A stretch of DNA of 64,000 bases from Stegostoma tigrinum (GCF_030684315.1 NC_081373.1:40401989-40465988); one strand, 5' to 3'; numbered from the stretch's first letter, positions 3,803 to 57,910 are shown. Translations and numbers: made by a program. Notes: generated by a model not told the origin, from the letters alone.

Positions 3803-4125
3803 ATAGAATCCATACAGTATAGAAAGAGGCCATTCAGCCCATCAAGTCTGCACCAGCCCTCTGAAGAGCATTCCACCCAGACCCTGCCCCCATTCTATCA
3901 CCATAACCCACATTAACCATGACTAATCCACCTAACCAGAAAAGCCTTAGACATGGCACACAATTTAGTGCAGCCTCATCTTTGGACTGTGGGTGGAAAC
4001 CAAAGAACCCCATGCAGACATGGGAAGAACCTGCAAACTCCACACAGTCTCCTAAGGCTGAAATCAAACCCACATCCCTGGTGCTGAGAGGCAGCTGTAC
4101 TACCCACTGAGCCAATGTGCCATCC
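3803..4125 (-). mobile_element. HE1-like V-SINE, near full length
   Basis: Minus strand has a tRNA head (tggctcagtgg A box), V-domain tgtgtggagtttgca..ttct.cccatgtctgcatggg and a CR1-derived tail. Confidence 0.85.
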
Positions 4126-8500: not shown

Positions 8501-11377
8501 AAAATACACAAAAAACAAAATTCAACTGGTACAATTTCACGTGCTATTGTGAAAACACATTTTAATCAAATTATTTAAAATCGGATTTTTAACATCAGAA
8601 GTTTCAGTTACTGAGTCAAAATCGCAAATAGATTTTTACAACACTTTTTGAGATGCATTGGGAATAGATAAATCCTAACATCCAGCAGACTACTCCATGT
8701 GATATGACAGGCAAGATGCCAACACTTGACTTAACATTTGAAACTCCTATCATAATGTCTCTTAATGCAATCATAGCCAAAGGTGCAGTAATGTTCCATT
8801 ACTATCAGGACGTGCTGATGTTGGACTTTGAATAAAATATGTGATGCACTCAGTTTGTATATTTGCACTAACTATGCTTTTCAGGGCTTTTTCTTTCCAA
8901 TCTGAAGGCTGAATGACTATGTTCATTCAATTCATATTGTTAAATATTGCATCATATACATAAGTCACCATTTTAATGCTTTTGGAATATGAGCAGCATG
9001 AAAATATAATATTTAAGTATTTAACACTTTATCATTTTAAAGCATACAAACAGAATTTCAGAATAAGTCAAAGTGAAGGGTCAGTTGTGAATGAGGCATA
9101 AAAAGGAAATGTACAAAGTCTGTTGTAATATTAAAATATTTGCTTTGGTTGTTAACTTGCAGTTGTCAGATCTGTTTACTTTCTTCAGAACTATTTCAGA
9201 CTTTCTCTCAGATTCCAACTCAAACTATCTCTTGCATTTTTAAGAGTATTGATAAGCTTTTTTATACCCCAAGCATTTGTGGGTTTTTTTTTGCTATCTT
9301 TGCTTTTTGCTTTTTATCTGGCAAGCCCCAGTCTAGCCAATCTGCTACGTCTTTTTATCCTTGATCTACTGCCCGCACTCTTTACAATATGTTGTCTCTG
9401 ATAGAACAATTTTAATCTTGCCAATCTCTCATTTACAGATTCCTTGCTGCTCAATGAACTGCCAATGCTCTTAGCATTGTAACCCGACATTCCCTGATGT
9501 GCTGTTTCACTTTCTGTAATGAGCAGTCCCCTCGCCGTTGCTTAATCTTCCTGATGTCTCATCTTGGCTGACCCAACATTCTTGAATATATTGCTGCTGT
9601 TACTGCATTGTGTTTCTTTTCTGTAGTCAATGTGTTGTCCCCACCATCCCAGACATAATTCTGCTACTCTCTCTGCTACCCCTGTAGATCAATGCTAATT
9701 ATTCTTTCCTGATGATATAATTCATATTTTTAACTCATAAATTTTGAATGTTTCTAGACTTGCCTTTTTGAATTTTGTGGCTAGATGATTCAGAAAATTA
9801 GGTCCTGAATTTGGAATTATCCACCATTCAGGAGCAAAACGAAAACACGTCATCGAGCTAACACCCGCATGGAAAATATAAACACAAACAGAACTTGAAG
9901 CAGGGGATATTATGTGCCAACTAGCTGAAGCTTATGGGCAGCTTTAAATCTACATCAATTCAGTCAGCCAAACCTAAAATAAAAAATATCATGGGGACAT
10001 GATTTAGACAGATAAATTGATGGCAAAGCACCAATGGTTCTCTTCAAAATGCATTCAGTAAGATATTACCACAATTCATGATGGGAGAAAAAGATATATC
10101 AATGTGTGTCCATTGCATTAAATGGTCTTAACTTGACATTATTTCACCAGTTTGAGAAAGTTTAATGTTGCAAATCTGTAAAATAGCAATGTCAGTGAGC
10201 TCTCCATTTGACCCAAGTGGCTTACTACTGAGACTGCATACAAAGTAGAAAAATAATTCATCTTCCACTGGTGCTGTCAACTCACGCTTTAATGAGCACA
10301 CGATAATACCTCTTTGTTATAGCTATGAATTGGCCACACAGCAAAATCCTTTGCAGCAGAAAAGCAACCACATTGGAATACTGTTGAAGGAATCAGAAAA
10401 TGTGAAACAGATTATATAAAAATACCTTGCTAATTAGATGATTTGCTTCTTGGATTTTCAATGATTGTATCAATGAATCTGATAGTTCAAGGTTCAAACT
10501 GTGGTCACATTCTGGTTTGCTTTGCATAGCTCTGTTCTGAAATGATGTGAATACTTGAGTAATGATCACTGCGGTTGGTAGTATGGGGAGATTACTGCCA
10601 CCAGTCGTCTTTCCCATGTGAGTCTCAAGGAGTGTTCAGTAGTCTGTGACAGAGATGGACCATGAATAAATCTTGCAGAAGAGGCTCTTACATTCTATAG
10701 CAAAATGTGGTTTATAATATTTCAGCAATGACATCCCAGGTTATGGTAACTGTTGGATATTATAACTATTACTAACAAGAGGTAGAGAAAACAGATGAGT
10801 CTTTAATTGGAAACCAGGCCAGATCCCAAACAACTAGTTCTCGAGCCAGAGGCTGTATTACATTATTACACTATATGGAGGTCAGTATAACTCGAACATT
10901 AACTTTCTCACAATGACTGCATTACAGATCAGGCTCCATAATAAATATGATTTAAATGTACCAAATCTTCCGAATTCACTCCTGTCATCTAGAATTCACG
11001 ACTGGTGAGTTACGTTTTTCTATTATGATGGAATGGTGGTGATGGAAGGCATGAAGCATGATAACAGGAGTGGTTGGACTGACCCCCTCTGGGGTCTTTG
11101 AAGGAAGGAGGCCTCGTGGGTAGAAGAATCAGACAAAACATTCACTCAATCAGATGTAAACCATTGGTGTAATTTCATGTGTGTACTGCATCTTCCAAGT
11201 TTAATCTTAGTTTTACTTCATGTTTGCAATAATCTGATTAGATTGCCAAATAAATTGAACCTAAATCCATTACCAGTTTTGTGTGAGATTGGTAGCTTTG
11301 CATTAGGAAACCAGACTAGTTCGGATGAAGAGACACTGGACCTGAAATATTATATCTAGTTCCTTCCCACAGATGCT

Positions 11378-12072
11378 TTGAAGCTTGTGAAATCCACATT
11401 GATAGTGGAGGCTTGGGGACCACTTCGCAGAACACCTACGCTTGGTTTGCAATAAACAACTGCATCTCCCAGTCGCGAACCATTTCAACTCCCACCACCC
11501 CCCCCCCCACATTCCTTAGACGACATGACCATCATGGGCCTCCTACAGTGCCACAAAGACGCCACCCAAAGGTTGCAGGAACAGCAACTCATATTCCGCT
11601 TGGGAACACTGCAGCCCAATGGTATCAATGTGGACTTCACAAGCTTCAAAATCTCCCCTCCCCCCATTGCATCCCAAAACCAGCCCAGTTCGTCCCCACC
11701 TCCATAACCTGTTCTTCCTCTCACCTATCCCCTCCTCCCACCTCAAGCTGCATCTCCATTTCCTACCCACTAACCTTATCCCGCCCCCTTGACCTGTCCG
11801 TCCTCCCCGGATTGACCTATCCCCTCCCTACCTCCCCACCTATACTCACCTCTACTGGCTCCATCCCCGCCCCTTTAACTTGTCTGTCTCCTCTTCACCT
11901 ATCTTCTCCTCTATCCATCTTCGATCTGCCTCCCTGTCTCTCCCTATTCATTTCAGAACCCTCTTCCCCTCCCCCTTTTCTGATGAAGGGTCTAGGCCTG
12001 AAACATCAGCTTCTGTGCTCCTAGGATGATGCTTGGCCTGCTGTGTTCATCCAGCTCCACACTTTGTTGTCT
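11378..12072 (+). mobile_element. PLE (Neptune-type) 3' fragment with a small 5' inversion
   Basis: GIY-YIG C-terminus (IMGLLQCHKDATQRLQEQQLIFRLGTLQPNGINVDF) closely similar to the 32-34 kb ORF; C-rich UTR; hammerhead motif; 11378-11404 is the inverted copy of 11623-11649. Confidence 0.9.
11980..12007 (+). ncRNA. Minimal PLE hammerhead ribozyme motif
   Basis: CTGATGA-agggtctaggcct-GAAA-catc; stem III ACGT has decayed to ACAT. Confidence 0.75.
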
Positions 12073-16944: not shown

Positions 16945-18105
16945 TTTAGGCTTGTCAGCATTTTTATTGCCTGTCCCTAGTTTCCCTTGAGAGGGTGTTG
17001 ATGAGCTGCCTTCTTGAACCATTACAATGCATGTTCTGTAGGTAGACATGCCTTTAGGGAGAAGCCCCTTTTAGGCAGGGAACTGTAGGACTTTTACCCA
17101 GTGACAGTAAAGGAATGACAATATATTTCCAAGTCAGGGTGGTGAGTGGCTTGGAAGGAATTTTATAGATGTCTATGTTCACATGTATCTGCTGCCCTTG
17201 TCCTTCTAGATGTAAACGGTTATTGGTTTGAAAGGCACTGTCTAAGGATCTTTGGAGAATTTCTGCAATGCATAGTACACACTCAGCATCAGTGGTGGTG
17301 AGGATGAATGCTTGTGGGCGTGATGCCAATCAAGCAGTCTGCTTTGTCCTGGATAGTGTCAAGCTTCTTGAAAATTGTTGGAGCTGCACTCATCCAGGCA
17401 ACTGGGGAGTATTCTATTACACTTCTGACTTGTGTCTTGTAGATGGTGGACAGGCTTTTGGGGAGTTAGGTGGTCAGTTACATGTTGCAGTATTCCTTGC
17501 ATCTGATCTGTTCTTGTAGTCACTGTGTTTACGTCCTGAGTCCAGTTGAGTTTTTGGTCAATGGTAACCCCCAGGATGTCGACAGTGAGAGATTCAGTGA
17601 AGGCAACACCACTGAATGTCAAAGGGCAGTGTTAGATTATGTCTTATTGAAAATGATTATTGCCTGGTATTTGTGTAGCACAATTGCTACGTGTCACTCA
17701 TCAGCCCAAGCCTGGATACTGCCTGGATCTTATTGCATTCAAGTATGGCCTGCCTCAGTATGTGAGGAGTCACAAATGGTGTAGAACATTGCGTAAACAT
17801 TGGTGAACATTCCCACTTCTGATCTTATGATGGACTGAAGATCTGTGGTCAAAGAGACGAAGATGGTTTAGCTTAGGACAATGTCTGAGGAACTCATGCA
17901 GAGATATCCTGGAGCTGGGATGACTGATCTACATCCAGCTCAGCAATCGTCCTATGTGCCAGGTACGACTCCAACCAGTAGTGAGTTTGCTCCCAGATAC
18001 CTGATTCCAGCTTTGCTAGGGCTCCTTGATGCCACACCCAGATGAATGCAGCCTTGATGTCAAGGGCTGTCACTAATGCCTCACCTCTGGAATTCAACTC
18101 TTTTC
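16945..18105 (-). mobile_element. Non-LTR retrotransposon family B (CR1/L2 group) RT and 3' remnant
   Basis: NSRGEALVTALDIKAAF.WVWHQGALAKLES and ILGVTIDQKLNW; tail equivalent to gggcaataaatgc. Confidence 0.85.
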
Positions 18106-19149
18106 TCCATCTCAGGCCATTTTATTTCTCCTATGTAATGTACCAAGAAGATTTTGACCAAGCAACAATTGTCTCTTGAAACCTACTTTGCAATTTCCTA
18201 TCCCTTTCGAATAGTTCTCAAGCTGTTGAATTTTTGCGTTGAGCTTGCTATCAGCCGAACAACCTTAAATAAATTTGTGCCTCTTAAATTCTACAAGGAA
18301 TGTGGTACGCTGGGTGTGCTAATTGTTATTTCACTGCTGGCTATATTTAAGGCTGGGATAGGCAGATTTAGCTCTCTCACGGAATTAAGAGGGATAGGAA
18401 GTGGTCAGAAAGGTGGTGTTTAAAGCCAAGACTGGCCACCATGGTCACACTGAATGGTGGCTCAGGCTTGAGAAATCATATAGTATATACAAAATGCTAT
18501 TTCATGCATACATGTGATTGCAAAACCAGCAGTTGTGGATGGAGTATGCCTTCTCCTGCCTTACCTGTGAAGTGAGGGTTGAAACTCTTTAAGCCGCTTT
18601 GGGGCATTTAATAATGTGGAAATATGAAACATCTCTTCTCACATTCTTTCAATGTGGAATAACTACTTAAAATAAAATTCACTGTTAAGTGTCAGTGGTG
18701 TCTCATTTGCTGCATTCTCATTTCGAGGAGATTATAATCCTTTATAAAATTACCAGTCCTGAAATAAAGGAGATACCTCCAGCCTCAGTTCAGATCTTGT
18801 TCATGTTCCAGGAGCACCACCCATTTTTGGCTCAAACACATCTCAAAAGAAATTTTAACGACACAGTGTGTGTGCTTTATGACTAAAGTAGTATTTCCAG
18901 TACTGGCAGTGATGCTAAAGGTTTAAACAAATTGGAAATAGAGGTAAAAAAATACTAGGACCAGCAAACAAATGTTCAGCATCAAAGATTAGTCGGGTGG
19001 CCTGTCCTAAGAAGTGAACCTTTATTTTGTCTCATTCATTGCTTGCCTCCCTCGTATAGGTGTCAAATGTTTGAGACAGGCCACTAATGAGAGGCAACAG
19101 AAATGAAACAATATTAGTATATAATTCAAATTAATATGCATGGATTAAA

Positions 19150-24200: not shown

Positions 24201-25376
24201 CCAGTCTTCAGAGGTACAGCCCCACTGACCATGACCATCCTTATAGGACACCTGGGTGGATATTGGAGACTGGACTCTTATCCAAGCCCCAGAACTGATT
24301 TGGAGTCTGCTGATGACTTACTGTGTTGTGTGCAAAGTGTTTCTTGCACATGTGGCAGACACATGGTGCAGTTGTGAGATTGACAGATCAATAAGGCATA
24401 TGACCAAATGTCCACTTTCCTGACTGACTACTGCTTACAGCCATGACAAGCTACCTGGCTTCGAGTCAGTGCTGTACAGCAAGGCAATACAGCAATATGA
24501 TGAGCCTCGGGTTTGGGGTGCAGGGTAATGCAAAGTAAGGCTGGGATGCAGTGAGCTTGCAGGTGGGCACCAAGCAAGTGAGCACAAGGGGAACAAGAGG
24601 CCCTGCAGATGCAGCTTGTTCCAACCTGTCAGCTGGATGCCTGCCCTATGTGCTCAGTGGCCCCTTGCAGGTGCATTGCAATGATAGTTTGTGGAGCATC
24701 CTGAAGGGCAACACTTAGAGGTTTAAAGTAAGTGGATCATTGATGCACTACATGGGGAAACTGGCAGGTGTTGGATACTAGCAACCATTGATGTGCAGAA
24801 GCTGTCTGTCAAGCGAGCCTAAGATATTGGTGCCCAGTGCTCAAGATAGCAGTGCAGAGGATCAGGCAGTGAGTTGGAGTCACCAGGTCCCTGCCCTGAC
24901 TTCCATGTTGGGAATTTTGCAGTGTCCAGTTTTCAAGTGGTGAATGGTAGGATCAGAAGCTGCCTATTAACGAGGTGAGATTCAGTCTTGATGTGGATGA
25001 TAATGAGCAAAAATCCCTGTCAATAGGTATCTCACTGCTCTCCAGCAAAAATCTCACCTTGATGTCTGGAAATCTTTTGGAAAATGCAACAAGTTGCTCC
25101 TGCTTTTGAGAAAGGCCTCATTCAAATTTTCATGCAATTTTCTCAAATTTCTTGCCAAAGCCCAAGTTGGGCACTATAAGGTCCTTCCCGCTATTGTCTG
25201 ATGTCAATTAATCTTGAAGTAGGGCACAGAGTAAACCTGATTGTGGCTGGTAGTTTAAGAAAAAATTATGGCTATTCACTGGTGGAAAAATAACTCAGCT
25301 GTGTGTGACAACACTTCAGGGTATAGAATAAAAGAGGGTAAAAAAGTAAAACTTAAAATAAATAAAGCAAAGCCAG

Positions 25377-25460
25377 GTAATCGCTTCAACGGCACATACA
25401 CAAAAATTGGTGCAGTGTAGAAAAGATTAACATGGCCCCTATGCCAGGGTGACACATAAA
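25377..25460 (+). pseudogene. RNU6: U6 snRNA retrocopy, nt 1-84, 3'-truncated
   Basis: Gapless manual alignment to recalled vertebrate U6 gives 63/84 identities; the ACAGAGA box is mutated (gtagaaa). Confidence 0.9.
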
Positions 25461-25475
25461 ATAAAGCAGATCCAA

Positions 25476-26740
25476 GGGCTTTTGTGGCACAGCGCTAGTG
25501 TCTCTACCTGTGAGCCAGGAGACCCAGCTTCAAGTCCCACCTGTTCCAGAGGCATGCCATAACACCTCTGAACAAAAGCAAAATCCAAGTGATGGTTAAT
25601 AGTCAACAAAACAAGTCACCATGATTTGGTGGTGGGAAAGTTGTTTGGTAATGTGTGATAGCACTTTGGGATATATTTAAATAAAGCAGACTCAAAGACA
25701 TGCTGGATTTGTGGCAGAGTGGTTTGTGTCCCTACCTCTGATCCAGGAGGCCTGAGTTTAAATCCCATCTGCTCCAGAGGTGTGTCATAACATCTCTGAT
25801 ACAGGTTGGTTAGGAAAGATAAAGCAGACCCACGGGCCTAGTGGCACATAAATAGTGTCCCTGCCTCTGAGCCAGGAAACCCAGGCTCAGGTCCCACCAT
25901 CTCCAGAATGTGTAATAACATCATAGAATCCCTACTGTGAAAACACATTGAGTTTGCACAAACCTACTGAACAGAATCCCGCCCAGACTCACCGCATTAC
26001 CCTATCCCTGTAACCCCACATTTATCATGGCTCATCCACCTAGCCTGCACATCCCTGTACAATATGGGCAACTTAGCATGGTCAATCCACATCTCTGGAT
26101 TGTGGGAGGAAACTGGAGCATTTGGAAGAAGTGCAGACATGAGGAGAATGTACAACCTTCACACAGACAGCCATCCAAGTGTATAATTGAGCCTGGGTCC
26201 CTGTACATCCCTTAACAGGTTGATTCAGAAAATATAGTAAAGCAGCCCTAGTTTTGGTTGTGTGTGATGGTACATCTACATATTAAGTGATAAACAGACC
26301 TGGGAGCTTCTGTGGTGCAGTGATAATGCCTCTATCTTTGGGCCAGGTAGGCCTGCGTTGAAGTTCCTCCTCCTCCAGAAGTAGTGTAATGTCTCTGAAC
26401 AGGTTGATTAGGAAAATGTGGATAGTGGAATTGAGAAATTAATGAGTAAAATGCAATGGTTGAAATTTTAAATGAAAAATGTACATCTGTGGGGCTGGGG
26501 ATGATCTTATGGTGTCCCTGCCTCTGAGCTAGGAGGTCTTGGTTCAAATGCACATACTTCAGGGCTGTGTACTAACATCTCTGAACAGACTGATTTAGTT
26601 TTATAAAAAATGAAGCAGACCCAGCGGGTTCTTATGAAATAGTAGTAGCGTCCCTGCAATTGGAGCAAGAGGACCTAGTTTAAGGCCCACATACCCCGTC
26701 AGATAATATCTCTGAACAGGTTGATTAGGAGATTTTTAAA
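25476..26740 (+). mobile_element. Six copies of a ~115-bp tRNA-derived SINE (unit A) at ~25476, 25704, 25834, 26304, 26490 and 26626
   Basis: A box ~TGGYRCAGTGG, B box ~GGTTCAARTCC, 3' hairpin CAGAGGTGT-gtcata-ACATCTCTG, tail aacaggttgattaggaaa. Confidence 0.8.
25923..26204 (-). mobile_element. HE1-like V-SINE inserted into the third unit A copy
   Basis: Same family as 3803-4125; short duplication acatc on both sides; the unit A tail resumes at 26205. Confidence 0.85.
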
Positions 26741-27674
26741 AATTACAATGCAGACCTAGCCCTTTCCCAATATCCCTACTTTAACTTCGTTTTTGATAGA
26801 TCACATTATCTGTAGGGCATTGTCCTTAAATTTACAAATGGCGGCATGGGTGATTTACTGGTGGCAGCCAATAGTGTAAAAGCAAGAGGAAAAATTACAG
26901 TGATTTGGTGGTGGGAAGGCTGTTTGGTTGTATGTGATAACACCTCTGAAAATTTTAAGAAAAGCAGGCTCAGGGATGGATCTGCAGAAGTCTCTGTAAC
27001 CTAAGCTCACCAAGAGTATTAGCTGTATTTTAGTGTTCAACTGTAAACAATGTTACTTTCCAGTCAGGCCTCCTGATTTAAGGTTTGATAATCGATTTCA
27101 GCAAAATGTTTTGTCTTCTAGCTGATTGCTTTTTCCTCCACAACTTTCCTCTCATACAATTTTACAAATTTCACTCGTTACTACCCTATCTCTTATGTTC
27201 CCTAGAGAAATTTTAAAGTCCAATTGAATACAGTACTAACATAACAGCTTTGAAGAATAAATCAAATATTTCTACTTTATTCCAGGTACTGACATTCACA
27301 CACGGTTGTGCTTTATTTTAGATGACGTTTTGTTTTTCCTCTAAAGTAACTCAATAAATAATGCTGCACTTTTTGTATCTCAAAATCATCCTAATTTTAA
27401 AAAAATGTCGTTGTTGACATTGTTCCTTTAATATTTAATTTATTTCTCTTTAAAATAAACAAATATTCCTTTCTCATATGCACAGATATCATTGACACTG
27501 TGAATGAATGCATTTGTATTGTTTTCTGACTATTTTAATTTTCATGTGACCATTTTCTTTAAATAATGTAAAATATGACTTCAATGAACCTTAATTTCTG
27601 GAGCCCAGGCTTTGAAATGTTTGATAGTCAATATTTAATTTGTATAAAAAAGTTCTCCTCTCCTCAAAAACTTT

Positions 27675-32482: not shown

Positions 32483-33965
32483 TTAGGGAGGCAGAGACAG
32501 GTTGGACTGGTTTTGGGATGCAGTGGGTGGGGGGGAAGAGCTGGGCTGGTTGTGTGGTGCAGTGGGGGGAGGGGATGAACTGGGCTGGTTTAGGGATGCA
32601 GTGGGGGAAGGGGAGATTTTGAAACTGGTGAAGTCCACATTGATACCATATGGCTGCAGGGTTCCCAGGCGGAATATGAGTTGCTGTTCCTGCAACCTTC
32701 GGGTGGCATCATTGTGGCAGTGCAGGAGGCCCATGATGGACATGTCATCAAGAGAATGGGAGGGGGAGTGGAAATGGTTTGCGACTGGGAGGTGCAGTTG
32801 TTTGTTGCGAACTGAGCGGAGGTGTTCTGCAAAGCGGTCCCCAAGCCTCCGCTTGGTTTCCCCAATGTAGAGAAAGCCGCACCGGGTACAGTGGATGCAG
32901 TATACCACATTGGCAGATGTGCAGGTGAACCTCTGCTTAATGTGGAATGTCATCTTGGGGCCTGGGATGGGGGTGAGGGAGGAGGTGTGGGGACAAGTGT
33001 AGCATTTCCTGCGGTTGCAGGGGAAGGTGCCGGGTGTGGTGGGGTTGGAGGGCAGTGTGGAGCGAACAAGGGAGTCACGGAGAGAGTGGTCTCTCCGGAA
33101 AGCAGACAGGGGTGGGGATGGAAAAATGTCTTGGGTGGTGGGGTCGGATTGTAAATGGCGGAAGTGTCGGAGGATAATGCGTTGTATCCGGAGGTTGGTA
33201 GGGTGGTGTGTGAGAACGAGGGGGATCCTCTTGGGGCGGTTGTGGCGGGGGCGGGGTGTGAGGGATGTGTCGCGGGAAATGCGGGAGACGCGGTCAAGGG
33301 CGTTCTCAATCACCGTGGGGGGGAAGTTGCGGTCCTTAAAGAACTTGGACATCTGGGATGTGCGGGAGTGGAATGTCTTATCGTGGGAGCAGATGCGGCG
33401 GAGGCGGAGGAATTGGGAATAGGGGATGGAGTTTTTGCAGGAGGGTGGGTGGGAGGAGGTGTATTCTAGGTAGCTGTGGGAGTCGGTGGGCTTGAAATGG
33501 ACATCAGTTACAAGCTGGTTGCCTGAGATGGAGACTGAGAGGTCCAGGAAGGTGAGGGATGTGCTGGAGATGGCCCAGGTGAACTGAAGGTTGGGGTGGA
33601 AGGTGTTGGTGAAGTGGATGAACTGTTCGAGCTCCTCTGGGGAGCAAGAGGCGGCGCCGATACAGTCATCAATGTACCGGAGGAAGAGGTGGGGTTTGGG
33701 GCCTGTGTAGGTGCGGAAGATGGACTGTTCCACGTAACCTACAAAGAGGCAGGCATAGCTGGGGCCCATGCGGGTGCCCATGGCCACCCCCTTAGTCTGT
33801 AGGAAGTGGGAGGAGTCAAAAGAGAAGTTGTTGAGTGTGAGGACGAGTTCCGCTAGGCGGATGAGAGTGTCGGTGGAGGGGGCCTGGTCGGGCCTGCGGG
33901 ACAGGAAGAAGCGGAGGGCCTTGAGGCCATCTCCATGCGGAATGCAGGTGTACAGGGACTGGACG
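32483..33965 (-). CDS. PLE reverse transcriptase plus GIY-YIG endonuclease, N-terminally truncated
   Basis: Motifs VQSLYT, QTKGVAMGTRMGPSYA, LRYIDD, linker CNRRKCYTC and NVVYCIHCTRCGFLYIGETKRRLGDRFAEH. The listed start at 33979 lies in the TSD and is not a real start. Confidence 0.95.
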
Positions 33966-34878
33966 CCCACAGTTATCAAGGTGTCTGCACTTATGTTGCA
34001 ATGTCACTTTTATTCGCAGCATTGTGCATGTTACCTACATCACAAATCCTTCATCAGCAAAGGACCCACAGCACCTCATAAAATGCTCAGCACTTACAGA
34101 ACATTTTCTTCTGAATTAAATTAGCAATTATGATGAGCAACCATTTAAATGTTTCAGACAGAAATTCTGTTAAGGTCAGTTCTTTTCAAGCAACACATTT
34201 TAGTGATATAAAAGTAATTTCCTTTCAAATCATTGGTTGCAGGCTGATTTTAAAGCCCAGGAATAGAAGGCACAATGTTGCTAAAGTTTTAACAATGGTA
34301 CATGTGATTTTCTGGGAAAAATAGTCTTTCACATGTTTTGGGCTGCAACGTTTGATATCATAACTGTGGGGATTTAAATGATGCATATTGTGTAATAAAT
34401 GAGCTAAAACATTAAAAATATTCCAGTCATATCTGAAAACATTTTGTTCCCACCTCATGTTACTTATTATTCCATTAGAATATGTTCTTTACAGTGAATT
34501 GAATGTAGAGATTGTCTGCAAGTAAATGCATTGGCTTTCAAATGCTTTGAATGAACATTAAACATTTAGGTAATTATAGCATTCCTTTATGAGTTGTGGG
34601 TGCTTACAAAAGGTTAGCTTTTAGAAGTTTTCAACACTGCTCACAGTATCCACAAATGTAAAGAAACAATTTCCATGTGACTTTACTAATAAAGCAAACA
34701 TGCTGATCAAATAAATTGCTATATGCTGTGCACTCTTCATTGGGATAATAGGATATATTACCTGTCTTGAAGTTCATTCCAAGTATTATAGTTGTTCAGC
34801 TCATAATCATAAAAATAAATTTAAAATGTTGGTACTCATGTAAAATAATAATGTTATTATGGAAACATGTCTTAAAAA

Positions 34879-54997: not shown

Positions 54998-57910
54998 GGG
55001 GAGGTGATGCCCTAGTGATATTAACATTGATTAATAATCTTGAATCCGCTAATATTTGAAGAACCTGGGTTTGAGACTTATCGTGGCAGATGGTGGAATG
55101 TGAATTCAATTTTTAAAAATCTGCAATTAAGAATCAACTGATGACCATGAAACCATTATCAATTGTTGGAAAATAAAGCCCTGGTTCACTAACACCCTTT
55201 AGGGAAGGAAATCTGCTATCCTCTTCTGGTTTGGCTTATATCTGACTCCAGATCTACATGCAATATGGTTGACTCTCATTGGCCTAGCAAGCCATTCAGT
55301 TTTATCAATTGCTACAAAGTCTTGATTTTCCACCAGAAAAGACAACAGCAGAAATAGTCCTGTTGACCCTACAGAGTCCTCCTCTCTAACATCCGGGGCC
55401 CAGTAGTAAAATTGAGTGAGCTGTCTCACAAAGTAGTCAAGCAACAGCTTGATGCAGTCATACTCATGAAATCATACCTGACAGTTAATGTCCCAGACAC
55501 CACCATCACCATCCCTGGTAATGCCCTGTCGCACCGGCAGGACAGACCCAGCAGAGGTGGCCACACAATGGTATATGGTCGGAAGGGAGTTGCCTCAATA
55601 TTTACAGTCCCCCATGAAGTCTCATTGCTTCAGGTTAAACATGGACAAGAAACTTCTTACTGATTACATTGGCTGTCTCCTCCAAGTTAAACAACGCTTA
55701 GAGGAAGCACTGGGGAAGTCAAGGACACAAAATGTACTCTGGGTGAGGGATTTCAATGTCCACCATGAAGAGCCGCTTGGCAGCAGTACTACTGACTGAG
55801 CTGGGGATGAAGTTCCACTTTCTAATTGAGAATGACCTCTATCGTGCTGTGTGGCACTATTAAGGTGCTGAATAGGACAAATTTTGAATAGATCTAGCAA
55901 CTGTAGACTGGGTATCCATGAGGTGCTATAGGCTGTCAATAGCAGCAGAATTGTACTCCAGCACAATCTGTAACCTCATGATCTGGCATATCCTCCACTC
56001 AACCATTACCATCAAGCCAAGAAGTTCAATCCTGGCTCAATGGAGAGTGCATCAGAGCATGCCAGAAGCAGCACCAGGCATACCTGAAAATGAGGTGTCA
56101 ACCTGGTAAAGTCACAAACAGGGCTATTGCACACCAAACAGCATAAACAACTAGTGATAGACAGAGTTAAGTGATCCCACAAGCAGCAGATTGGATCTGA
56201 GTTCTGCAGTCCTACCACAATCAATGATGGAAGACCCCAGCACATCAGTGCAAAAGAAAGGGCTGAAGCATTCGCAGAAATCTTCAGCCAGATGTGCCGA
56301 GTAGATGATCCATCTCGGCCTCCTCCAGTGGTCCCCAGTATCACAGATAGCAGTCCTCAGCCAATTCCATTCACTCCACATGATATCAAGCAACAATTGA
56401 AGACACTGGATTCCGGCAATAATACTGAAGACTTGTACTCAGGAACTTGCATCCCCACCCCCACGACCAGCCAAGACGGTCCAGTATAGTTACAACACTG
56501 ACATCTACCTGACAATGTGGAAAACTGCCCAAGTATGTCCTGTACATAAAAAGTAGGACAAATCCAACCTGGCCAATTACTGCCCCATCAATCTCCTCTC
56601 AATCATCAGTAAAGGGATAGAAGGTGTCACCAAGAGTGTAGTCAAGCAGCACATACTCAGCAATAGCCTGCTCAGTGATGCCCAGTTTGGGTTCCACCAG
56701 GGCCACTCAGCTCCCGACGTCATCATAGCCTTGGTTCAAACATGGACAAAAGTGCTCAATTCCAGAGGTGAGTTGAGAATGACAGCCGTTGACATCAAAG
56801 CTGCATTCGACCGAGGGTGGCATCAGGGAGAACGAGCAAAATTTGAATCAATAGGTATAAGATGGGAAACTGTCTGGTGGTTGGAATCATATCTGGCAAA
56901 TAAGAAGATGTCTATGGTTGTTGGAGGTCAGTCATCTCGGCTCCAAGCCATCTCTACAAGAGTTCTTCAAGGTAATGTCATAGGCCTAACTATCTTCAGC
57001 TGCTTCATCAATAAGCTTCCCCCTGTCATAAGGTCAGAAGTAGGGAGGTTCACTGACAATGTTCAGCACCATTCACGACTCGTCAGATACTGAAGCACTC
57101 CATGTTCACATGCAAAAAGATCTGGATAATATCCAGGCTTGGGCTGACAAGTGGCAAGTAACATTCCCCCTGCACAAATGTCAAGTTATGACCATCACCA
57201 ATAAAGGACAATCTAACCACTGCCCCTTGACAATCAGTGGTGGTATAATCACTGAAATCCCCCCAGAGTCAACATCCTGGGGGTTACCGTTGACCATAAA
57301 GACGTGGCTACTAAAGCACGTAAGAGGCTAGGAATACCGCAGTGAGTAACTCACCTCCTGACACCCTCTCCCACCCCCAGAGCCTATCCACCATCCACAA
57401 GGCACAATCAGGAGAGTGATGGAATACTCCCCACTTGCCTGGATGGGTACAGCTCCAACAACACTCAAGACACTTAACATCATCCAGGACAAAGCAACCC
57501 ACTTGATTGGCACTGCATCCATAACATCAACTCCCTCCAGAAATGGTGCTCAGCAGCAGCAGTGTGTACTACCTACAGGATGCACTGCAGAAATTCACCA
57601 AAGATCCTCAAACAGCACCTTCCAAACCCATGACCACTTCCATCTGGAAGGATGAGGAATGCCACCAATTTCAAGTTCCCCTCCAAAGCTCCCACCATCC
57701 TGTCTTGGAAATATGTCACTGTTCTTTCACTGTTACCGGGTCAAAATCCTTGAATTCCCTCCCTAATGCCATTGTGCATCACCTGACAGCAGGTGGACTG
57801 CAGCAGTTTCTGAAAGCAGCTTACCACCACCTTCCCAAAGGTTGCTAGGGATGGGCAATAAATGCTGGCCAGCAAGTGGTGCCCACATCCACCAAAATGA
57901 AAACAAAAAA
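54998..57910 (+). mobile_element. Near full-length family B LINE (APE plus RT, no visible ORF1) with a SINE-like 5' end; degenerate
   Basis: 5' 280 bp match SINE 34879-35160; then NIRG..VKLSELSHKVVKQQLDAVILMKSYLT, WVRDFNVHH, KSNLANYCPINLL, AVDIKAAFDRGWH; tail gggatgggcaataaatgctggcc. Confidence 0.9.

Follow-up and report, generated by a model that had tools for sequence, protein, structure and literature searches.

A head-to-tail array of retroposed cassettes in a Gypsy long terminal repeat of the shark Stegostoma tigrinum

Composition of the array

A stretch of 64,000 nucleotides of the Stegostoma tigrinum genome (GCF_030684315.1, NC_081373.1:40401989-40465988; one strand, 5′ to 3′), here called the window, was analysed, and all positions are counted from its first letter. 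It contains an array of eleven cassettes that are arranged head to tail, are separated by a linker of about 14 bp (ATAAAGCAGACCCA), and are followed by one half of a long terminal repeat (LTR). Six cassettes are copies of a short interspersed element (SINE, unit A), four are derived from a long interspersed element (LINE, unit B), and one is derived from the U6 small nuclear RNA (snRNA). An earlier sequence-only reading had claimed ten linkers of about 15 bp, recurring about ten times, between cassettes in the order B, U6, A, B, A, A, short B, A, A, A, long B. All ten linkers proved to be present with the reported sequences and positions, and the order was confirmed.

The array begins with B1 (25215-25361, 5′ border approximate), the 5′-truncated 3′ end of a Tx1-like LINE with an A-rich tail, which has the same plus-strand orientation as all features described here unless stated otherwise. 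Linker 1 (25362-25375) has 2 mismatches to the 14-mer at 25819-25832, which served as reference for all mismatch counts. It is followed by the U6 snRNA retrocopy (25377-25460), whose 5′ end is complete and whose sequence breaks off at an internal A run, after about position 84, by linker 2 (25461-25474, 1 mismatch), and by A1 (25475-25574), a tRNA-type SINE whose tail lacks the final ~15 nt. Linker 3 (25574-25589) is badly decayed, with 6 mismatches in the ungapped comparison. B2, a LINE 3′ end of ~90 nt (25590-25680), linker 4 (25681-25694, 1 mismatch) and A2 (25695-25818), the best preserved SINE copy, lead to linker 5 (25819-25832), which is identical to the site of empty LTRs.

The third SINE, A3 (25833-26236), is split by a later insertion into a head (25833-25922) and a tail (about 26200-26236). 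The insertion, which had been overlooked in the sequence-only reading, is an unrelated SINE in reverse orientation (25921-26205, minus strand); further copies lie at 3845, 46607 and 60273, and it is presumably of the HE1 type. Linker 6 (26237-26250, 3 mismatches), B3, a LINE 3′ tip of ~38 nt (26251-26289), linker 7 (26290-26303, as badly decayed as linker 3, with 6 ungapped mismatches) and A4 (26303-26420) follow. Between A4 and A5 (26488-26609) there are about 70 A-rich bases (26421-26487) that match no unit and contain no linker; the best candidate has 7 mismatches, and a missing linker had indeed been reported for this junction. The remaining features are linker 8 (26610-26623, 1 mismatch), the most decayed SINE A6 (26624-26744), linker 9 (26745-26758, 3 mismatches), B4, a LINE 3′ end of ~200 nt that represents its 3′ untranslated region (UTR; 26759-26958), and linker 10 (26959-26972, 4 mismatches), the copy that is still attached to the host LTR. 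The sequence beyond it, also overlooked before, is the 3′ half of this Ty3/Gypsy LTR (26973-27083). The four B units all differ in length.

With a threshold of at most 3 mismatches seven of the ten linkers were recovered, and with at most 4 mismatches eight, while 0.10 and 0.83 chance matches, respectively, were expected in 1.64 kb as estimated from the rest of the window. A looser scan of the whole window with a 12-mer was not significant when taken alone (10 matches versus 5.2 expected, a number reached by 6 of 100 shuffles); six of its ten matches fall within 1.3 kb on one strand. A tandem-repeat scan of the window revealed no period in the array, and an ARAGORN scan yielded no match in it.

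The linker and its host element

The genome (3.2 Gb, 835 contigs) was searched for related loci, and 171 loci were gathered; this set results from searches and is not a random sample, and 19 duplicate or long loci were excluded. The host LTR is about 260 bp long. An intact copy contains the linker motif once, preceded by a T run, a TATA-like box, and followed by a poly(A) signal about 90 nt downstream. Judged only from its position, the motif would be the working TATA box of the LTR. The LTR ends were located by motifs containing TG and CA, and the independent test of them is a flanking 5-bp duplication, which was found in 11 of 31 copies compared with 0.9 by shuffling. LTR halves adjoin a decayed internal region in 19 of 20 loci. 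An open frame of 126 amino acids in the interior has an RVT_1 match just below the cut-off, its best match in the PDB is the Ty3 reverse transcriptase (RT; E 0.01), and 63 Gypsy-type polyproteins were matched. By these similarities the host element is classified as a Ty3/Gypsy LTR retrotransposon. Its interior from LTR to LTR is decayed and spans only ~2.4-2.9 kb (L226, L228, L235, L238), and it is likely an internally deleted, non-autonomous Gypsy form. Pfam and PDB searches with frames of the host interior and of the LINE that were read through stops gave nothing useful. At L138/L139 and L230 LTR copies are paired close together in inverted orientation.

The empty LTR site, with at most 1 mismatch, was found 35 times in the genome, mostly in intact LTRs, compared with 0 matches of the reversed control. 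An A tail joined to the linker yielded 73 exact matches versus 0 for the control, and 28 of the first 30 adjoin an LTR half or a SINE or LINE end. Both LTR halves flank 32 arrays among the 171 loci, and 32 LTRs are without a recognised unit. Many other arrays of this kind thus exist. Empty LTRs hold one motif copy, and filled LTRs hold several, which lie between co-oriented units whose 3′ ends are A-rich. The motif has sharp borders: on its upstream side, the LTR bases are replaced by A's two bases before the core, and when a LINE follows, the LTR match stops one base past the core. Counting of the junction bases gave a duplicated stretch of about 14 bp. The one-copy empty sites and the sharp borders bear out the claim that the linker is a target-site duplication (TSD). 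An alternative, that the linker is an integral part of the SINE, was rejected, as none of 26 dispersed copies had it downstream at up to 4 mismatches.

Among 29 LTRs that were found by their 3′ half, 10 were empty, 16 had 1-6 units within 1.5 kb, and 3 were unreadable. The number of units per LTR is over-dispersed (p 0.004) and fits a geometric law better than a Poisson distribution, which is what a model with one new target per insertion would predict. Growth was also observed at other places. Away from the LTR, a co-oriented neighbour within 140 nt was present at 4 of 27 SINE and 11 of 27 LINE loci, while a rough estimate from background density predicts ~0.4%. Junction pairs reached 11 of 14 matches in 37 of 150 comparisons within a locus versus 37 of 400 between loci. 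As arrays with private linkers also form at sites outside the LTR, re-use of an insertion junction would matter as much as the target sequence, and the enzyme likely had a preference for the LTR box in addition to re-using its own junctions. The earlier idea of a sequence-specific target therefore stands in part: the LINE is biased towards the target, but the SINE is not motif-specific (2 of 29, see below), and other arrays use linkers that are private to their locus.

At L042, L116, L119, L034, L109, L123, L099 and L103 the LINE and the SINE form arrays, the largest of about ten units, that repeat a linker of their own, and no LTR half was visible there. A cryptic linker at LINE sites outside the LTR was tried as a candidate and rejected (1 of 22 versus 0.5 expected).

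Origin of the cassettes

Several lines of evidence indicate that the cassettes arrived one by one. The unit order is irregular and different in every array, with no recurring order. All 140 SINE and all 130 LINE units are co-oriented with the LTR, compared with 12 of 23 copies of the unrelated SINE. Twin LTRs of one element (L226, L235), which were identical at birth, contain different arrays, or one of them is empty. The SINEs of the window are only 65-78% identical to each other, while dispersed copies reach 88%, no window SINE has a sibling from the window among its 18 nearest of 183 copies, and the siblings occupy ranks of about 18-154. In a tree of 184 SINE copies the common ancestor of the window SINEs spans the whole tree, and none of 61 cherries joins two copies of the same locus. 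The scattered placement, the uniform orientation and the unlike content of twin LTRs agree with the earlier proposal of independent, co-oriented insertions.

An alternative origin would be that a SINE/LINE block was multiplied together with its linker, by local tandem duplication or by unequal crossing-over, and two results speak for it. SINE identity is slightly higher within arrays than between arrays (72.9% versus 71.0%, p 0.002), so that some local duplication or bursts are possible, and an approximately unbiased test on 46 rows of ~110 nt did not reject a clade of the six window SINEs (p 0.18). The low identity and distant ranks of the siblings, the irregular order, the four different LINE lengths in the window, the missing tandem period and the enclosure of arrays elsewhere by both LTR halves all argue against it, and we regard duplication as a very improbable explanation of the array. 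Both results nevertheless count against growth by repeated insertion, and so do several other observations. The A4-A5 junction is without a linker, and the 5′ half of the LTR was not found within 10 kb upstream of the array. Following the LTR 5′ half, the linker is present within 4 mismatches in just 12 of 30 cases, compared with 61 of 101 cases at internal and 29 of 40 at terminal positions; this frequent loss is not predicted by a clean duplication. The over-dispersion of unit numbers could equally come from sites that differ in accessibility. Lastly, no active or intact LINE was among the copies seen, all of which are broken.

The LINE copies in arrays have variable 5′ extents of 34 to 1999 nt and are characterized by an A-rich 3′ end, 5′ truncation and a TSD of ~15 bp. 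The longer copies reach the C-terminus of the second open reading frame (ORF2), with 47% identity to the homolog P0001. One LTR holds a LINE of ~3.2 kb whose sequence aligns colinearly to an ORF2 of the endonuclease-RT type (residues 197-937 of 1291, E 7e-27), and the longest copy seen begins at the end of the endonuclease domain. In the full-length homologs Exo_endo_phos, RVT_1 and, weakly, zf-RVT domains were recognised, and the decayed copies themselves gave no Pfam match. Two of ten clusters of P0001 relatives that were looked up are named "transposon TX1 149 kDa protein", and the others are unnamed or have a generic or unrelated name; a text search for longer relatives of P0001 found none. 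The LINE is designated Tx1-like from the cluster names and the ORF2 colinearity. An LTR half lies within 1.5 kb of 26 of 57 LINE loci (15/29 and 11/28) versus 0 in 145 kb of background; the query for the 15/29 set included the linker, which gives a mild bias. The share exceeds the >20% of shared flanks that is set for target preference in the relevant part of PMC4494074. A Tx1-like LINE is present and target-biased, in support of the earlier reading, but unit B is the LINE itself and not a captured cellular RNA. A short motif common to SINE tail, LINE tail and LTR was discarded as a recognition signal, since upstream of first insertions it occurred in 3 of 32 cases versus 3.1 expected; the same pattern fits just 9 of 75 LTR halves.

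With the generally known patterns of the RNA polymerase III promoter, an A box was found in 108 and a B box in 143 of 184 SINE copies, compared with 23 and 5 in shuffles. An 18-nt motif, which was picked by eye out of these same copies, is common to 120 of 184 SINEs and 34 of 76 LINE ends, versus about 0 in shuffles. The SINE head reached a best score of 54 against tRNA genes of seven types, with a shuffle maximum of 43, and one SINE copy searched in Rfam had no tRNA match. Unit A is a tRNA-type SINE and has its 3′ sequence in common with the partner LINE. It is abundant, with 2773 candidates at first look and about one copy per 36 kb of background sequence, and most copies are dispersed with unrelated flanks. 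An LTR half adjoins 1 of the 29 top loci, and one more has the linker. With 2 of 29 top copies at it, the SINE is not specific for the linker motif, contrary to what the earlier reading had led one to expect.

The U6 cassette has a score of 47 bits versus the Rfam cut-off of 44 and is single-copy in the genome. At its 3′ junction the LTR site scores 12 and the U6 gene's own end -9, and the possibility that linker 2 is the 3′ end of U6 itself was rejected by these scores. It has an intact 5′ end, a 3′ end cut at an A-rich point and the TSD on both sides, and it is a tailless retropseudogene as described in the pertinent passages of PMC5322556 and PMC4476161. An LTR half or an adjacent linker was absent from all of the 30 best U6 loci.

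Chimeras of U6 and SINEs are unusually common in the genome: of the 30 best U6 matches (including L196-L219), 13 are fused to the 5′ end of an HE1-type SINE and 3 to SINE A. These 16 loci and several tRNA-like pieces that sit without a linker on SINE heads are likely template-switch chimeras.

The sequences that follow linkers comprise 72 LINEs, 70 SINEs, 85 LTR halves, 1 U6, 1 LTR 5′ half and 67 unassigned sequences, many of which by eye look like decayed LINE, SINE or LTR. An Rfam search of 20 other array loci gave two junk matches only. One LTR target contains a retrocopy of ~600 nt that stems from a Rab11 3′ UTR and shares 76% identity with its single parent (L162, C1:26965423-26966103; L309, C38:27454117-27454721). 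A second unique cassette that ends in poly(A) has one parent, which is matched up to twin poly(A) signals (L239, C23:61544134-61544469; L317, C24:27603460-27603698). Among 16 hand-picked candidate cassettes there are four tRNA-like pieces. One was recognised by Rfam below the cut-off (the sole match in the 16), one by ARAGORN at a relaxed threshold, and two match tRNA genes of this genome with scores of 83 and 86, compared with shuffle maxima of 45 and 43. The proposal that the array records captured RNAs can be upheld insofar as arrays occasionally hold U6, tRNA and mRNA 3′ ends; nearly all cassettes, by contrast, are supplied by the LINE and SINE families.

One tRNA copy that follows a linker extends across the point at which a tRNA gene carries its intron (L048:783-912, minus strand; L289:8906). 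ARAGORN calls the gene Arg, and we presume from its body that it is Pro. Because the copy spans the intron position, an unspliced pre-tRNA was likely the template.

The linker could also travel with the elements, by read-through of a unit, its linker and the next unit (3′ transduction), so that some neighbours arrived together. L028, which has a single LTR-type linker in a cluster whose other junctions share another repeat, is compatible with such an event, as are the several tRNA-like pieces and U6 copies that are fused straight to a SINE head and indicate that compound cassettes exist. On the other hand, the linker is absent from the ends of 27 of the 29 top SINE copies, the motif is already present in empty LTRs, and the unit order does not recur across arrays, which together make transduction a very unlikely explanation.

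Two further elements were noticed in the window. An open frame of 506 amino acids at 32483-34003 (minus strand) has RT-like and GIY-YIG-like motifs by eye and no Pfam match; it is presumably of the Penelope type. Further copies of its 3′ end lie at 11329-12072 and in many of the loci retrieved from the genome. A LINE RT fragment of 178 amino acids (RVT_1, E 2e-15) is located at 56557-57093 (plus strand), and a related inverted piece near 17071-18110.

Age, mechanism and relation to known systems

A comparison of the orthologous locus, which had been recommended, was performed with one relative. The array is shared, and no unit is missing in the parts covered by the relative's listed contigs (24950-25504, 25514-25749, 25770-26027, 26102-26416 and 26712-27069; 26417-26711 is uncovered). 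The covered parts differ by 3-11% and the flanks by 7-9%, so that no conservation of the array above its flanks was seen against this one relative, which is ~7% diverged. The units are 14-30% decayed from the majority of their family columns. An age gradient along the arrays was not significant, as the 3′-most SINE was more decayed in 22 of 35 arrays (p 0.10). The array appears to be an old, fixed by-product without host function, and nothing indicates selection.

That the arrays are instead a selected, CRISPR-like store of RNA-derived sequence, serving as a source of small RNAs or as a trap that silences the LINE, the SINE or the LTR element, could be suggested by the repeat-cassette layout and the diverse passenger RNAs, and also because an insertion at a TATA-like box would likely disable the LTR promoter. 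A selected store is nevertheless highly improbable in view of the divergence in the relative, the decay of the units, the non-significant polarity and the origin of most cassettes from two families. The CRISPR-like architecture that had been proposed is a likeness of layout only.

Taken together, it is very probable that the array in the promoter region of the Gypsy LTR results from target-primed insertions that took place repeatedly and were driven by a Tx1-like LINE that is now dead. The endonuclease of this LINE would nick the bottom strand within the T run that faces the TATA-like box, and the freed T's would pair with the A tail of an RNA, or with an internal A run in the case of U6 and A1. 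A second nick ~14 nt further on would lead to the duplication, and each event would add one reverse-transcribed RNA and one further copy of the 14-bp target. Since an A tail now precedes the duplicated stretch, the junction would remain a target, and occupied sites would be hit again more often than empty ones. Re-use of junctions would likewise build the private-linker arrays at non-LTR sites, and the LTR site would be a strongly preferred seed, not the sole one.

It is tempting to speculate further, although we hold this wider view only tentatively and think it somewhat more likely to be wrong than right, that the Tx1-like ORF2 re-targets its own junctions, so that an array could start from any first insertion, extend itself and record RNAs: the LINE's own, the SINE, U6, unspliced tRNA and mRNA ends. 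It would amount to a natural tape recorder that writes RNA into the germ-line DNA of a vertebrate, and its favourite seed would be the TATA box of a rival Gypsy element, which is thereby disabled.

The loci represent one insertion site in dozens, and likely hundreds, of natural replicates that are empty, lightly filled or heavily filled, and the question whether retroposon pile-ups result from site re-use or from later selection becomes directly testable. They show which RNAs were copied in trans by a Tx1-type enzyme, a candidate source of retrocopies in fishes; Tx1 is named among the drivers of retrocopies outside mammals in the pertinent part of a preprint (10.64898/2026.06.26.734816). The property of the enzyme, iterative writing at a self-renewed site, is of interest for RNA-templated genome writing. 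No literature was found on this trio of LINE, SINE and LTR, on this target, on arrays so long and mixed, or on private-linker arrays; the search did not extend to repeat databases, in which the families may well be catalogued.

CRISPR arrays also grow by one insert plus one duplicated repeat, and their inserts can derive from RNA. The likeness to the shark array is one of bookkeeping only. CRISPR arrays have unique spacers of uniform length, whereas the cassettes described here range from 34 nt to kilobases and mostly stem from two selfish families; there are no Cas genes, no significant polarity was seen, and there is no sign of use. The arrays are not evidence for a new immune or memory system. 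For tandem Alu insertions, El Sawy and Deininger reportedly described in 2005 that an endonuclease site is re-used beside an earlier insertion, with no fixed host target or shared linker and in clusters that are usually short. Tandem Alu insertion is also cited in the relevant passage of PMC3415434. The re-use of an endonuclease site is common to both systems, and the fixed host target and the shared linker distinguish the shark arrays. For the U6 cassette, the pertinent sections of PMC5322556 and PMC4476161 describe 3′-truncated small-RNA copies that were primed at internal A-rich stretches and are flanked by TSDs, as well as U6 joined to SINE or LINE ends by template switching. The tailless retropseudogenes and U6 chimeras described there are dispersed single insertions in mammals and reptiles, whereas here the copy lies within one regenerating site.

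The proposed mechanism is known in kind, since targets shared by Tx1 LINEs and SINEs, tandem insertions and LTR-preferring Tx1 families are on record. The sections of PMC4494074 used here list Xenopus Tx1 with the target Tx1D, Keno with U2, and Kibi and Koshi with microsatellites. These are likewise endonuclease-RT LINEs with a target preference, and Tx1 itself targets a transposon; the shark LINE has another target, is ~46% target-associated in the sample, and is dead. According to the same sections, Tx1-8_Crp and Tx1-4_AMi favour LTR retrotransposons, and crocodilian Tx1-Mar LINEs and SINEU share a target inside Mariner-N4_AMi (Kojima 2015, PMC4494074). They further describe tandem SINE insertions that sandwich one TSD and are interpreted as sequential insertions, SINE families that vary in the strength of their preference, and snRNA pieces that were added to 5′ ends (PMC4494074). 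In Tx1-Mar/SINEU, as in the shark, a Tx1-type LINE and its SINE share a target in another transposon; it is the closest precedent. In contrast to it, as far as it is portrayed there, the host in the shark is the TATA-like box of a Gypsy LTR and the SINE is of the tRNA type, the arrays reach 9-11 mixed units including U6, tRNA and mRNA ends instead of the pairs described there, and growth takes place also at non-host sites with private linkers.

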